Source of the DNA: a virus
Taxonomy: Duplodnaviria > Heunggongvirae > Uroviricota > Caudoviricetes
Strand: one strand, 5' to 3'
Virus record (IMG/VR): IMGVR_UViG_2558860161_000005
Length of the DNA stretch: 10,919 nt
This document shows, piece by piece, positions 1,545 to 6,170 of the stretch. The notes under the pieces are model-generated. The model saw only the letters and a list, made by a program, of their open reading frames with translations, was not told the DNA's origin and did no database searches. Position 1 is the stretch's first letter; each line of letters opens with the position of its first letter. Both the position numbers and the translations under genes were made by a program.

Positions 1545-1599
1545 GGTGATGCTGCCAACTTACTGATTTAGTGTATGATGGTGTTTTTGAGGTGCTCCA

Positions 1600-1875
1600 G
1601 TGGCTTCTGTTTCTATCAGCTGTCCCTCCTGTTCAGCTACTGACGGGGTGGTGCGTAACGGCAAAAGCACCGCCGGACATCAGCGCTATCTCTGCTCTCA
1701 CTGCCGTAAAACATGGCAACTGCAGTTCACTTACACCGCTTCTCAACCCGGTACGCACCAGAAAATCATTGATATGGCCATGAATGGCGTTGGATGCCGG
1801 GCAACAGCCCGCATTATGGGCGTTGGCCTCAACACGATTTTACGTCACTTAAAAAACTCAGGCCGCAGTCGGTAA
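1600..1875 (+). CDS. insA: IS1 InsA (91 aa)
   Basis: Translation [43 protein letters not shown]... matches IS1 InsA as I recall it; zinc-finger CxxC motifs present. Confidence 0.9.
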
Positions 1876-2297
1876 CCTCGCGCATACAGCCGGGCAGTGA
1901 CGTCATCGTCTGCGCGGAAATGGACGAACAGTGGGGCTATGTCGGGGCTAAATCGCGCCAGCGCTGGCTGTTTTACGCGTATGACAGGCTCCGGAAGACG
2001 GTTGTTGCGCACGTATTCGGTGAACGCACTATGGCGACGCTGGGGCGTCTTATGAGCCTGCTGTCACCCTTTGACGTGGTGATATGGATGACGGATGGCT
2101 GGCCGCTGTATGAATCCCGCCTGAAGGGAAAGCTGCACGTAATCAGCAAGCGATATACGCAGCGAATTGAGCGGCATAACCTGAATCTGAGGCAGCACCT
2201 GGCACGGCTGGGACGGAAGTCGCTGTCGTTCTCAAAATCGGTGGAGCTGCATGACAAAGTCATCGGGCATTATCTGAACATAAAACACTATCAATAA
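1794..2297 (+). CDS. insB: IS1 InsB (167 aa; the transposase is made as an InsAB' fusion by -1 frameshift)
   Basis: ATG at 1794; translation [25 protein letters not shown]...HYQ matches IS1 InsB as I recall it; overlaps insA in the -1 frame downstream of the A6C motif. Confidence 0.9.
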
Positions 2298-2312
2298 GTT
2301 GGAGTCATTACC

Positions 2313-2436: not shown

Positions 2437-2859
2437 TCACTGCGCCACGTCCTGAAAATTACCCTGATAGAAAGCCAGTATGCGCTGCATAACTTCGCTC
2501 TTCCGGCACTCGCGACAGATTATGTTTAGGCGACTGTCGTAGCGACGTATTTCTCCGTCAGGTGATGACCAGATAAGGTCCGGATCAACCACAGCAGGTT
2601 TCTTCACCTTTGCCCTCGAGAGTTTTTTGCGGGCGTTTTGCCAGTCCTTACGCGCCTGTTCAGAGGGGAATAACCCGTAGCCGGAGTTGTATACATCGCC
2701 ACTGGCTACCAGCTCTCTGGCAAGAACGCTCATCAGATATCTAGTCGCACCTGTTTTAGCTTCCAGTTGCCGTAACGTCTCACGGCCGCTCTGGCGCACG
2801 AGTTCCACCACCTGCCATTTAATTTTTTCCCGCTCTTCTTGTGTAAAAACTTTTGCCAC
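2437..2859 (-). CDS. Hypothetical 140-aa prophage early protein, basic, possible DNA-binding; function unknown
   Basis: ORF with GTG start at 2859-2857 preceded by GGGGG SD; translation MAKVFTQEEREKIKWQVVELVRQSGRETLRQLEAKTGATRYLMSVLARELV... It lies between the replication initiator and the methyltransferase, and its stop overlaps the alternative GTG start of the methyltransferase. Confidence 0.55.
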   Translation of the reverse strand: MAKVFTQEEREKIKWQVVELVRQSGRETLRQLEAKTGATRYLMSVLARELVASGDVYNSGYGLFPSEQARKDWQNARKKLSRAKVKKPAVVDPDLIWSSPDGEIRRYDSRLNIICRECRKSEVMQRILAFYQGNFQDVAQ

Positions 2860-2899
2860 CAGTCCCCCTTAAAATTACCTCATGACCTGAAATCAACAC

Positions 2900-3865
2900 T
2901 TATCCTCTGAAACCAGGCGGAATTTCTGTATCCGGTTCAGAAATATGATTAACACAACGCTGTACAGGTGAACGTCCCAGGCGGATGACCAGTTCGTCCC
3001 ATTTTTCGCGGAGCTTTGACGGGCTCATGATGTTTTTTACCCAGAATGGATCTCGCTGAACCCGACCAAACATTTCGCAAATTTGTCTGTGGCTTCTGCC
3101 ATCCAGCATCCGCATTGTGCGCACGTCATTGGCCCAGGCAGTCCAGTTAGGCTCTTTTGGTCGCATGATCTCGCCATCATCACTGGCTGCCTGTTCGTAG
3201 AGACCCACGATCCGCCCCCAGATCCACTGCGCACACGCCAAATCCTCCCTGCTACCCCACTGGCGTTTTTTCGCACTAAACACAACCGCGTCGGAGTTCC
3301 GGGTTAAAGAATCCTGTTCAGTCGTCTGCGGGTCCGGTTGCGAAGCTTCCGGACGAAAAGTGTTTTTATTCTCTGTAGTAATCTCTGTTGTATTCTCTGT
3401 AAGATCATCAGGCCATTTTGACCCGATGACATTGGGTCGTTTTGAACCAATGGAGCGTTTCATTTTGACCTCTTCCATCGTGTCATTTTGACCTGATGGA
3501 GCGGCGCATTTTGAACCGATGGATTCGCTCAATTTGCCACCATCTAAAAGCTCGCTCCCATAGTTGATCGTGTAGAAATTGGTCATATCGCGCTTTGATT
3601 TATTGAGCTTTTCACAACGCAAAAGCCCCAGCGTTTTCAGACTTGCAAACGCGCGCTTTAACGTTGACTCTGACCAGAATGGGAACTGTTCCAGCCATTG
3701 TTCCGTTGTGTTATAAATCCAGCGAACACCATCACATTCCATGCCGGAGTTGGTATCTCTCAACCAGTAGTGCAGTTGTTGCAAAACAATGGCTTCGTTT
3801 AAGCCAATTTTCATTGCCAGCTGCGTGTTTATAACCAGTGGGCGTTCAGCAAAAAGAAGGCTCAT
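2900..3865 (-). CDS. Phage replication initiator (lambda O-like role), about 322 aa from ATG 3865; contains the origin iterons
   Basis: Track ORF 2900..3919 begins at a TTG; the likely start is ATG 3865-3863 (MSLLFAERPLVINTQLAMKIGLNEAIVLQQLHYWL...), typical of a phage replication-initiator N-terminus. The central region is coded by iteron DNA (SIGSK repeats) and an AT-rich repeat (TENTTEITTEN). Family assignment is from memory. Confidence 0.7.
   Translation of the reverse strand: MSLLFAERPLVINTQLAMKIGLNEAIVLQQLHYWLRDTNSGMECDGVRWIYNTTEQWLEQFPFWSESTLKRAFASLKTLGLLRCEKLNKSKRDMTNFYTINYGSELLDGGKLSESIGSKCAAPSGQNDTMEEVKMKRSIGSKRPNVIGSKWPDDLTENTTEITTENKNTFRPEASQPDPQTTEQDSLTRNSDAVVFSAKKRQWGSREDLACAQWIWGRIVGLYEQAASDDGEIMRPKEPNWTAWANDVRTMRMLDGRSHRQICEMFGRVQRDPFWVKNIMSPSKLREKWDELVIRLGRSPVQRCVNHISEPDTEIPPGFRG
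3355..3541. other. Putative lambda-style replication origin: 5-6 iterons with a 23-24 bp period (3414-3541) plus an adjacent AT-rich tract with three attctctgt-like repeats (about 3355-3400), inside the initiator gene
   Basis: Direct repeats with core ttttga(a/c)c at 3416, 3440, 3463, 3486, 3509 and a degenerate copy near 3532, each followed by (c/t)gatgg-like sequence; ccatc/gatgg dyads flank the cores. The arrangement parallels ori-lambda within gene O. Confidence 0.6.
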
Positions 3866-4367
3866 AATTCCATCCAGCTTTTTGTTGGTATTGCTGTCGA
3901 TACGCAAGCTTGAAAGCAATTGCTTTTTCTATAAGTTCGTCAGTTTCACGATCCACTACGGCAGGATCAGCAAAAAGCAGTCCGGACTCCACCACATCGC
4001 CATATTCTTTGTTTAACCCGGCGATCATGCACGTGATGCTTTTTCCGTCAGTAATTTCACGATACAACCTGAAATCACTAATCCGGATAGCCTCCATAAT
4101 CGCAGGCACTAGCGCCGTGAACTTTTCACGCTTATCCCTGGTGTCGATAGCCTTCCAGCGTTCGAATATCTTCACTCGATTAACACCAAGCGCTCGCTGA
4201 TCAACCGCGCCACCTTCATCTGTGACACGCTGAACATCGATGTTCGGGCGCTCTTTCAAAGCCCAGAATGCTTCAGTGATTAATATCGTCGCCTGCTCCT
4301 GTGTCATTCCTGGTCGACATATCCAGGCATCCAGAGCCTCACGAACCTGTTCAGGAGTGATTTTCAT
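3846..4367 (-). CDS. 173-aa early-operon protein in the cII/YdaT position; possibly a YdaT-like regulator
   Basis: ATG at 4367-4365; translation MKITPEQVREALDAWICRPGMTQEQATILITEAFWALKERPN...; overlaps the dicC stop by 17 nt and the initiator start by 20 nt, suggesting translational coupling. Family assignment is tentative. Confidence 0.6.
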   Translation of the reverse strand: MKITPEQVREALDAWICRPGMTQEQATILITEAFWALKERPNIDVQRVTDEGGAVDQRALGVNRVKIFERWKAIDTRDKREKFTALVPAIMEAIRISDFRLYREITDGKSITCMIAGLNKEYGDVVESGLLFADPAVVDRETDELIEKAIAFKLAYRQQYQQKAGWNYEPSFC

Positions 4368-4581
4368 TGTTCAACCACCCCGCCCGCTTCGTCTTACGAT
4401 ATTCATCATAAACTTTGGGATCATACTGAAGCTCCCCGCCAGATGCCTCCTGTAGACGCATCGCGCGACCTTCGGGAACTAAATCCCCTTTCCAGCTATA
4501 AAGCGAAGCCAAACGAATACCTGCTGCTTGTGCAAGTTTTGTTTTTGAACCGAAATACAAAAGAGCGTCAGTTTTAAGCAT
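4351..4581 (-). CDS. dicC: DicC, Cro-like regulator of the Qin-type immunity region (76 aa)
   Basis: ATG at 4581-4579 with SD AGGTG 7 nt upstream; translation MLKTDALLYFGSKTKLAQAAGIRLASLYSWKGDLVPEGRAMRLQEASGGELQYDPKVYDEYRKTKRAGWLNNENHS; the 76-aa length and divergent arrangement with dicA match E. coli Qin dicC as I recall it. Confidence 0.85.
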   Translation of the reverse strand: MLKTDALLYFGSKTKLAQAAGIRLASLYSWKGDLVPEGRAMRLQEASGGELQYDPKVYDEYRKTKRAGWLNNENHS

Positions 4582-4595
4582 TTAAAACACCTTTA

Positions 4596-4662
4596 TTGTT
4601 AGTCATAACTAACAAGATAGATGTTAACAAAAACATAGTCAATACGATTTAGCATTAGCTAA
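4596..4662. promoter_or_regulatory. dicC-dicA divergent promoter/operator region with two palindromic putative DicA operators
   Basis: Perfect palindrome ttgttagt-cata-actaacaa at 4596-4615 and imperfect palindrome ttagc-atta-gctaa at 4649-4662, immediately upstream of the dicA ATG (4665). Confidence 0.55.
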
Positions 4663-4664
4663 CT

Positions 4665-5072
4665 ATGGAAACAAAAAATTTAACTATCGGCGAACGCATC
4701 AGGTATCGTCGGAAAAACCTCAAACACACCCAAAGGTCTCTTGCTAAAGCCCTGAAAATCTCCCATGTGTCTGTATCACAATGGGAACGGGGTGATAGTG
4801 AACCTACAGGGAAGAACCTTTTTGCCCTCAGCAAAGTATTGCAATGCTCACCAACATGGATTCTATTTGGCGATGAAGACAAGCAACCAACACCACCTGT
4901 TGAGAAGCCAGTTGCCTTATCCCCCAAAGAACTAGAGCTCCTTGAGCTGTTTAATGCACTGCCAGAATCAGAACAGGATACCCAGCTCGCCGAAATGCGA
5001 GCTCGAGTAAAAAACTTCAATAAACTCTTTGAAGAATTACTAAAAGCCCGTCAGCGGACAAATAAAAGATAA
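4665..5072 (+). CDS. dicA: DicA, HTH (XRE-family) repressor of the dicB operon (135 aa)
   Basis: ATG at 4665, stop TAA at 5070-5072; translation METKNLTIGERIRYRRKNLKHTQRSLAKALKISHVSVSQWERGDSEP... matches E. coli DicA as I recall it (135 aa). Confidence 0.9.
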   Translation: METKNLTIGERIRYRRKNLKHTQRSLAKALKISHVSVSQWERGDSEPTGKNLFALSKVLQCSPTWILFGDEDKQPTPPVEKPVALSPKELELLELFNALPESEQDTQLAEMRARVKNFNKLFEELLKARQRTNKR

Positions 5073-6112: not shown

Positions 6113-6170
6113 TTTCTGGTGACGTTTGGCGGTATCAGTTTTACTCCGTGACTGCTCTGCCGCCCTTTTT
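6113..6170 (+). ncRNA. dicF: DicF small RNA (53-nt core 6113-6165 plus U-tail), antisense inhibitor of ftsZ translation processed from the dicB-operon transcript
   Basis: Sequence tttctggtgacgtttggcggtatcagttttactccgtgactgctctgccgccc followed by ttttt matches DicF as I recall it; it lies between ydfC and dicB as in Qin. Exact ends are approximate. Confidence 0.8.

Follow-up and report, generated by a model that had tools for sequence, protein, structure and literature searches.

The DNA considered here, which we call the window, is the whole stretch of 10,919 nucleotides in IMG/VR virus record IMGVR_UViG_2558860161_000005 (Duplodnaviria; Heunggongvirae; Uroviricota; Caudoviricetes), and its gene order is that of a Qin-type lambdoid prophage. 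Its replication initiator gene carries, in gene orientation, an array of six 23-bp iterons (codons 108-154 of the 321 codons), then three tandem copies of a 12-bp unit (codons 155-167), and then a dyad (about codons 171-178). The positions of these elements are collected in table 1 together with those of the neighboring genes. We propose that the region 3327-3544 is very probably the vegetative replication origin of the element, that it lies inside the gene of its own initiator, and that it is built like ori-lambda.

The iterons share the core GGTCAAAATG and the consensus CATCGGGTCAAAATGACCCGATC, and they recur with a period of 23-24 bp. We number them from unit 1, which is nearest the 12-mer tract, to unit 6, which is promoter-proximal. 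The 8-mer TTTTGAMC starts at 3416, 3440, 3463, 3486, and 3509, exactly where an initial annotation of the sequence had placed the cores ttttga(a/c)c. It has seven matches in the window against 1.5 expected, a number that none of 200 shuffles reached, and five of the seven lie within 94 bp. The longer pattern CATTTTGACCNGATG, with three mismatches allowed, is not significant across the window (6 matches vs. 1.6 expected, with 2 of 200 shuffles reaching 6). The evidence for the repeats therefore rests on the count and the clustering of the 8-mer. With Tandem Repeats Finder the period-23 array spans 3440-3523, and a repeat search gives iteron spacings of 23/23/23 and 24 bp, both in agreement with the 23-24 bp period first proposed. 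The dyads attributed to the iterons are clear in units 1, 2, and 4, each of which is self-complementary at 16 of 23 positions (all 23-mers of the gene: mean 5.5, standard deviation 2.9), but the arms of units 3 and 5 and the whole of unit 6 are degenerate. This last unit corresponds to the degenerate copy that had been seen near 3532, and in relatives it is a good palindromic iteron, GATGAAGTCAAAGTGACCAAATC. Because 23 is not a multiple of 3, the units fall into three reading frames, so that the same DNA core is read as SIGSK, SGQND, or EVKMK, and the core motif is kept in all three. The description of the iterons as SIGSK repeats in the protein is thus correct for part of the array, whose translation contains SIGSK, SIGSK, and VIGSK, but the remaining units are read in other frames. 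An explanation of the repeats at the RNA level was rejected, as Rfam finds DicF alone in the window.

Five base pairs past iteron 1, on the promoter-distal side, begins the 12-mer tract, ACAGAGAnTACn x3, which is the predicted unwinding element. Tandem Repeats Finder detects it as a period-12 array at 3370-3401, and the repeat search resolves three 12-mers at 3367-3402. With 32.5% G+C it is the lowest 40-bp stretch in a profile of 2800-4100, and by nearest-neighbor energy no other 36-48-bp stretch of the gene is less stable (z = 2.2-2.4). The initial annotation had recognized an AT-rich tract with three repeats, a description that stands but that undersells a conserved element. The 12-bp unit, (A)CAGAGAnTACn, is conserved as DNA, in 2-5 tandem copies, in initiator genes of phages with Gram-negative hosts and of phages with Gram-positive hosts. 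In the tract units of loci found purely by protein similarity, the codons ACA and GAG are each used in 25 of 25 cases, and the middle base of the third codon is free, taking all four values and giving I, N, S, or T. Fixed ACA and GAG codons beside a free middle base are the reverse of what would be expected from selection on the peptide.

The tract is also widespread. At least 120 IMG/VR contigs contain the pattern ACAGAGAnTACnACAGAGAnTAC, and among the matches listed it lies in phase 0 of the longest open reading frame (ORF) in 118 of 120 loci, is preceded by at least 70 distinct iteron seeds, and has at least four copies of a 10-mer in the 170 nt upstream in 100 of 116 loci (control stretches: 0/114). 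The sole inspected match outside an initiator-like gene, in a giant-virus metagenome contig (locus L050), is in another frame, within a low-complexity repeat (NRDY) of the protein, and has probably arisen by chance, unrelated to the others. A search of a phage database with the 47-bp tract gave 91 matching records (82-100% identity). Nearly all of the matches listed there are in initiator genes (O-like, DnaD-like, or "primosomal protein I"), the few others being unannotated or otherwise named, and the hosts of the tract-bearing phages include Acinetobacter, Bacillus, Klebsiella, Staphylococcus, Erwinia, Burkholderia, Pseudomonas, Vibrio, and Geobacillus. We found no description of the 12-mer motif in the searchable literature, which leaves out older subscription papers.

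Just beyond the tract lies a dyad that the initial annotation missed. The extent of 3355-3541 that it gave does enclose the repeats, but the whole feature runs from about 3327 to 3544. In relatives the dyad reads GTCnGGTTGC-N3-GCAACCnGAC (10-N3-10), with a conserved mismatch at position 4. Across a survey of 26 distinct versions, 88% of cells are paired, and pair 9-15 co-varies (GC 21, CG 3, UA 2) and is never unpaired. The outer three pairs provide no evidence, because the sequences were chosen by the GTC...GAC pattern. At the junction between iterons and tract there is a GATC, and a GATC is found within 14 nt ahead of the tract in 22 of 94 distinct loci versus a background of about 4%. Methyltransferase genes lie close downstream of the initiator gene here and in related modules, and in two relatives they are of the Dam type. 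The GATC and these nearby genes hint that the origin may be under Dam/SeqA control.

Table 1. Elements of the proposed origin, domains of the initiator, and other features of the window (positions in the window; match to consensus where given)
Feature	Position	Strand	Details
Iteron 6, degenerate	3522-3544	-	GATGGTGGCAAATTGAGCGAATC, 15/23 to consensus
Iteron 5, left half-site good, right half degenerate	3499-3521	-	CATCGGTTCAAAATGCGCCGCTC, 19/23 to consensus
Iteron 4, palindromic 16/23	3476-3498	-	CATCAGGTCAAAATGACACGATG, 20/23 to consensus
Iteron 3, core kept, arms degenerate	3453-3475	-	GAAGAGGTCAAAATGAAACGCTC, 16/23 to consensus
Iteron 2, palindromic 16/23	3430-3452	-	CATTGGTTCAAAACGACCCAATG, 18/23 to consensus
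Iteron 1, adjoins 12-mer tract, palindromic 16/23	3406-3428	-	CATCGGGTCAAAATGGCCTGATG, 20/23 to consensus
GATC at iteron/tract junction	3403-3406	.	
12-mer tract, three 12-bp units then A-run	3360-3402	-	ACAGAGAATACA, ACAGAGATTACT, ACAGAGAATAAA; codes TENT-TEIT-TENK
Dyad just beyond tract	3332-3354	.	GTCCGG-N11-CCGGAC
Initiator gene	2900-3865	-	321 aa, ATG at 3865
N-terminal domain, aa 1-107	3545-3865	-	predicted iteron-binding winged helix
C-terminal helical domain, aa 204-297	2975-3256	-	homologous to lambda O C-domain; AlphaFold helices 206-296
Last 20 residues, aa 302-321	2903-2962	-	QRCVNHISEPDTEIPPGFRG; near copy of host DnaT C-terminus, ends SEPDTEIPPGFRG
cII/YdaT-like gene	3846-4367	-	
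Cro-like gene	4351-4581	-	
pR-like promoter ahead of cro, cII-like, and initiator genes	4614-4642	-	consensus scan 9/12, consensus match only
cI-like repressor	4665-5072	+	
DicF small RNA gene	6114-6165	+	Rfam RF00039, 76.7 bits, full length
DUF977/LygF gene ("Ren-like exclusion protein")	2437-2859	-	
IS1	1545-2312		9-bp target duplication CGTCTCCCA at 1536-1544 and 2313-2321
Integrase, excisionase, exonuclease VIII	right side of window		

The identification of the gene as a replication initiator, made at the outset from the sequence, is borne out by database comparison. The protein matches PHROG 391, "replication initiation O-like", at 5.5e-91, and its C-domain is homologous to that of lambda O. 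Parts of it match several PHROGs named "DnaD-like helicase loader" or "replisome organizer", and phages that are 97-99.8% identical in DNA annotate it as "DNA replication protein O", "replication initiation O-like", or "Primosomal protein I". The protein consists of an N-terminal winged-helix-like domain, a disordered linker, the lambda-O-like C-domain, and a DnaT-like tail. AlphaFold places the winged-helix-like domain at residues 10-105 (helices H14-19, H22-37, H54-60, and H66-78 and strands E47-49, E82-86, and E96-101; predicted local distance difference test, pLDDT, about 60-80) and a helical C-domain at 206-296. Residues 109-203, the stretch that codes the iterons, tract, and dyad, are predicted to be disordered (pLDDT 25-30). 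The model was built from a shallow alignment of 13 sequences that are 70-100% identical, and was used for the order of secondary-structure elements in the N-domain and for the disorder of residues 109-203. The best Foldseek matches to the N-domain are iteron-binding N-domains of plasmid Rep or initiator proteins (5kbj, 4pql, and 4pt7), with a template modeling (TM) score of about 0.55 and E = 4e-3; all matches have E > 1e-3, and we take them as a lead and not as proof.

Neither the whole initiator nor residues 1-107 has a match in Pfam, even at E <= 10. Sub-threshold Pfam matches of the protein or its domains to Slx4, YLR146W-A, and Sigma70_r4_2 were judged not to be real, and in a sequence search of the PDB a match to YteR was spurious, leaving the DnaT tail only. 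The N-domain family comprises 10,269 clusters (50% identity) at E <= 1e-3, for which there is no Pfam model. Of 5426 complete E. coli genomes, 1996 contain the origin sequence itself, and RefSeq names the gene under the origin "hypothetical protein" in the eight matches listed from them. In a plasmid database 84 records carry the N-domain, mostly non-mobilizable and many of about 40-45 kb. The one record inspected is a circular lambdoid phage genome without a replicon type, so it does not independently prove replicon function. Two tandem copies of the N-domain occur in distant relatives of 400-880 aa (loci L027-L029, proteins P0125 and P0128-P0131, and others), with no iteron array seen within the first 260 nt past the first copy; these proteins may represent another kind of initiator, one with two winged-helix domains.

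At the other end of the protein, 14 of the last 20 residues (70%) are shared with positions 160-179 of E. coli DnaT. The match is co-terminal, both proteins ending in SEPD(T/S)(E/Q)IPPGFRG and, without variation, in IPPGFRG. BLASTP aligns these 20 residues only, and the N-domain, linker, and three-helix C-domain of DnaT have no detectable relation to the initiator. The possibility that the initiator is a DnaT orthologue was rejected (NCBIfam NF002770, 16.3 bits vs. a cut-off of 201, with profile positions 160-179 only). Searches by phmmer with lambda P, DnaC, and a phage DnaB-like protein found no P, DnaB, or DnaC gene within 3 kb downstream of the initiator gene, and there is no gene of these types between cro and Q in HannyBb or mEp460_ev081, two complete free phages with near-identical modules. 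Among 72 loci in which the initiator is complete and the downstream sequence reaches 2.5 kb or more, a DnaC-, DnaB-, or P-like gene follows in 1 of the 26 loci with a P-x-GF(R/K)G tail versus 19 of the 46 without it (Fisher p = 7e-4, from three loader queries and loci that are not independent). This suggests, from sequence comparison, that mimicry of a host primosome protein by the tail may substitute for a phage helicase loader. The accessible sections of a 2026 preprimosome paper describe the DnaT C-domain as docking on PriA and the linker as binding PriB, and the N-domain as possibly recruiting DnaB/DnaC; these sections contain nothing that we found on the last 20 residues of DnaT.

The association of this type of initiator with iterons extends well beyond the window. 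A search with the N-domain, restricted to one genome per species, gave 24 loci, and in all but a few distant ones an array of 22-24-bp repeats lies directly past the N-domain and is followed by 1-4 ACAGAGAnTAC units. The array-bearing loci come from Escherichia, Citrobacter, Raoultella, Enterobacter, Izhakiella, Trabulsiella, Morganella, Moraxella, Bacillus, and Peribacillus, and also from a metagenome-assembled Hyphomicrobiales genome. Furthermore, across 87 N-domain homologs the iteron core changes together with the predicted recognition helix, SESTLKR being paired with the core GGTCAAAATGAC, SSDTVKR with GGGCAAATTGCC, TAKTIQR with GGACAATTTGTCC, SIDTVKR with GTGCAAAATGC, SKSTLRR with TGTTCAAAATGAACA, and SIPTIRR with GTGATCAA. 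Homologous initiator genes, whose lack of repeats the initial annotation had named as an outcome contrary to its proposal, thus do carry them, both in the 24 loci and in the 87 homologs. Klebsiella phages share with the window the N-domain and iterons alone, at 78% DNA identity, and the similarity stops at the tract. A Shiga toxin (Stx) phage discussed below shares the tract of its O-like gene. Such module swapping is the pattern that would be expected if the N-domain reads the iterons.

The repeats might also be explained as a mere repetitive peptide, that is, a low-complexity linker of the SIGSK type that arose by slippage and has no function as DNA, and the repeat region does code a predicted disordered, repeat-containing linker. 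Pairwise diversity by codon position argues otherwise; it was measured on ten colinear relatives in which the N-domain protein identity goes as low as about 73%. In the N-domain the diversity at positions 1/2/3 is 0.112 / 0.059 / 0.435, which is the usual coding signature. In the iteron cores it is 0.087 / 0.063 / 0.164, third positions being 2.7 times less diverse than in the folded N-domain (p = 7e-5), and in the 12-mer tract it is 0.000 / 0.149 / 0.036 (third positions vs. N-domain, p = 2e-6). The iteron spacers, at 0.243 / 0.192 / 0.205, lack codon periodicity (third positions vs. N-domain, p = 1e-4, two-sided). The drop in third-codon diversity in cores and tract indicates that selection acts on the DNA. 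Moreover, the period of 23-24 bp produces three frames and hence different peptides with the DNA core kept, and the units are dyad-symmetric. On the basis of the codon-position diversity and the three-frame core we rejected the peptide explanation, which we regard as extremely unlikely. A different proposal accepts the iterons as binding sites but has them work in some other process, for example autoregulation of the early operon, exclusion or incompatibility, or packaging or partition, with replication starting elsewhere. Plasmid iteron arrays also serve in copy control and incompatibility, and fragments of the lambda origin are reported to give replicative inhibition of homologous phages (PMC3349717). 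However, the combination of iterons, unstable tract, and dyad in fixed order, orientation, and position within an initiator gene is the arrangement of mapped origins, and the same tract stands in replication-initiator genes behind its 70 or more different iteron seeds. We consider it very improbable that the sites serve only in such other roles, and additional roles of the iterons may coexist with origin function.

It is likewise improbable that the region is an ancestral origin that no longer functions in this copy, a remnant within a Qin-type prophage undergoing decay. In E. coli K-12, Qin is known as a defective prophage, and several features of the window would fit with decay: it carries the DicF RNA typical of Qin, an IS1 lies in the next gene but one, and iteron 6 is degenerate. 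However, the origin (3300-3560) differs from that of the Escherichia phage PhiR42_1 by a single base, which lies outside the elements, and from those of the free phages HannyBb and mEp460_ev081 by 5 bases each. The initiator ORF is full length, with 1, 3, and 7 residue differences from the three phages in the same order, and iteron 6 is equally degenerate in all of them save for one base in HannyBb. In HannyBb and mEp460_ev081 this module is the only recognizable replication function between cro and Q. The initial annotation had held that the replication module is intact and that the neighboring methyltransferase is not. These comparisons uphold the former, and the small S-adenosylmethionine-dependent methyltransferase gene is indeed split by IS1, the same gene being uninterrupted in PhiR42_1. 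We therefore favor the interpretation of 3327-3544 as a replication origin that is intact in this element.

Several observations weigh against this assignment. The searchable literature yielded no binding, unwinding, or replication assay of this type of initiator, and neither BLASTP nor hhalign detects similarity between its N-domain and the origin-binding domain of lambda O, the C-domain alone being aligned. The AlphaFold model is of low confidence overall (mean pLDDT 51.8), and the Foldseek fold matches are weak. At 67% A+T the tract is only moderately AT-rich, and the window contains several intergenic stretches of lower stability. The p-values of the diversity and co-variation tests overstate independence because the relatives are phylogenetically related. 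Finally, the literature searched describes, as far as its accessible parts go, neither a role of the DnaT C-terminal tail nor a partner that it binds.

With these points in mind, we envisage initiation at the proposed origin as follows. Dimers of the winged-helix N-domain would bind the 23-bp dyad iterons and assemble a complex similar to the O-some, upon which the adjoining tract, the least stable part of the gene, would be opened. The C-domain and the DnaT-like tail would then bring in the host helicase-loading machinery directly, in a module without a P, DnaB, or DnaC of its own. That the tract is a sequence-specific origin element instead of a generic site of melting, kept constant as DNA in phages of Proteobacteria, Bacillota, and other groups, and, jointly, that the tail is a short mimicry motif replacing a phage-encoded loader is a tentative proposal, which we hold to be possible rather than probable. 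The searchable literature, which leaves out older subscription papers, yielded no account of either part. If it is true, then the tail would plug the origin complex into the host restart primosome, and the tract would have a reader common to all tract-bearing systems, despite their several unrelated helicase-recruiting domains. Candidate readers would be a shared surface of the winged-helix initiators acting on single-stranded DNA, a host helicase or primase, or an R-loop. Reading of a single strand by the shared winged-helix surface could be likened to the action of DnaA on DnaA-trios and of plasmid Rep on the strands of unwinding elements.

We take the element as a whole to be a Qin/mEp460-type lambdoid prophage of E. 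coli, a common lambda-like kind. Over the 1.2-kb query 2800-4000 the window is 99.8% identical in DNA to PhiR42_1 (99.3% across 7.7 kb), 98.3% to HannyBb, and 96.9% to mEp460_ev081, and the presence of DicF identifies the element as a prophage of the Qin/dicB type. Transcription from the candidate pR-like promoter would run through the origin, judging by the order and orientation of the genes. Downstream of the initiator gene there is DUF977/LygF and then the methyltransferase gene. DUF977/LygF occupies the place of lambda P and is absent from the modules of mEp460_4F5 and the Klebsiella phage ST147-VIM1phi7.2; it is therefore probably not an obligatory replication partner.

An origin within the O-like gene of a lambdoid prophage is to be expected, and the finding itself is thus ordinary: the layout is known, and what is described here is a new instance of it in a lambdoid replication module that is very common but uncharacterized. 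The signature of domain, iterons, tract, and dyad would allow this very common module to be annotated and its origins to be predicted from sequence. The 12-mer tract is a compact DNA motif that marks phage origins across phyla, and it offers a handle on how iteron-type initiators open DNA and on what sequence such opening needs. The tail, together with the missing loader, suggests a testable route by which phages borrow the helicase-loading machinery of the host.

Several known systems resemble parts of this module. The best, although weak, structural matches to the N-domain are initiators of the RepA_N type (4pql, 4pt7, and 5kbj), whose winged helix has been solved on DNA ("Rep-DNA complex"). 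The similarity extends over about 100 residues at about 17% identity and is drawn from a model of modest confidence, and these initiators are plasmid proteins whereas that of the window is a phage protein. RepA_N-type plasmids have the origin inside repA, with the iterons midway along the rep gene and a C-domain that interacts with proteins of the host primosome. At oriL of phage SPP1, G38P, one of the DnaD-like "replisome organizer" phage initiators, binds repeats within its own gene beside an AT-rich region; unlike the module in the window, SPP1 has helicase and helicase-loader genes of its own. The window shares its 12-mer tract with initiator genes that are annotated as DnaD-like in phages of Bacillus and Staphylococcus. 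The O-like gene of Stx2_14040 (LC567818) has this tract in the same place, directly behind its iteron array, and 97.5% identical over 40 bp, with one base differing. However, its N-domain and its iterons, of the GGTTTTCCC type, are unrelated to those of the window, and its module, unlike that of the window, is followed by genes annotated as "DNA helicase" and "replication protein".

The closest parallel in architecture is ori-lambda, shared also by the Stx phages P27 and 933W. Here, too, the initiator gene contains the origin, which falls where the N-domain joins the C-domain, 4-6 dyad-symmetric iterons with a central CAAAA(C/T)G are spaced at 20-24 bp, and an unstable, purine-rich tract on the promoter-distal side is followed by a GTC...GAC palindrome. 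The annotated lambda iterons, spaced at 20, 24, and 23 bp, occupy O codons 116-144, against codons 108-154 in the window, and the lambda order of iterons, AT-rich run, and GTCAGAG...CTCTGAC palindrome is the order found over codons 108-178 of the window gene. As in lambda, the gene belongs to the pR operon behind cro and a cII-like gene. In lambda and Stx phages, O dimers bind such iterons, and unwinding occurs in the AT-rich tract (PMC7466680). This published work and the shared layout lead us to regard the origin in the window as lambda-type by architecture, as the initial annotation had it, in so far as the three-part layout occupies the same place in the gene, but the N-domain family differs and a P gene is missing. 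In the C-domain, whose counterpart in lambda O is the part that interacts with P, residues 148-295 align with lambda O 135-270 at 34% identity (BLASTP, E = 5e-26; hhalign probability 99.5%). The N-domain lacks the Pfam domain PF04492 (Phage_rep_O), which lambda O matches at 5.7e-36. The iteron sequence differs from that of lambda, the tract ACAGAGAnTACn x3 takes the place of the lambda A-rich run, no P gene stands behind the initiator gene, and the protein has an extra C-terminal DnaT-like tail. Thus, as judged by sequence, the origin is of the lambda type by architecture, whereas by protein family its initiator is only half a lambda O.

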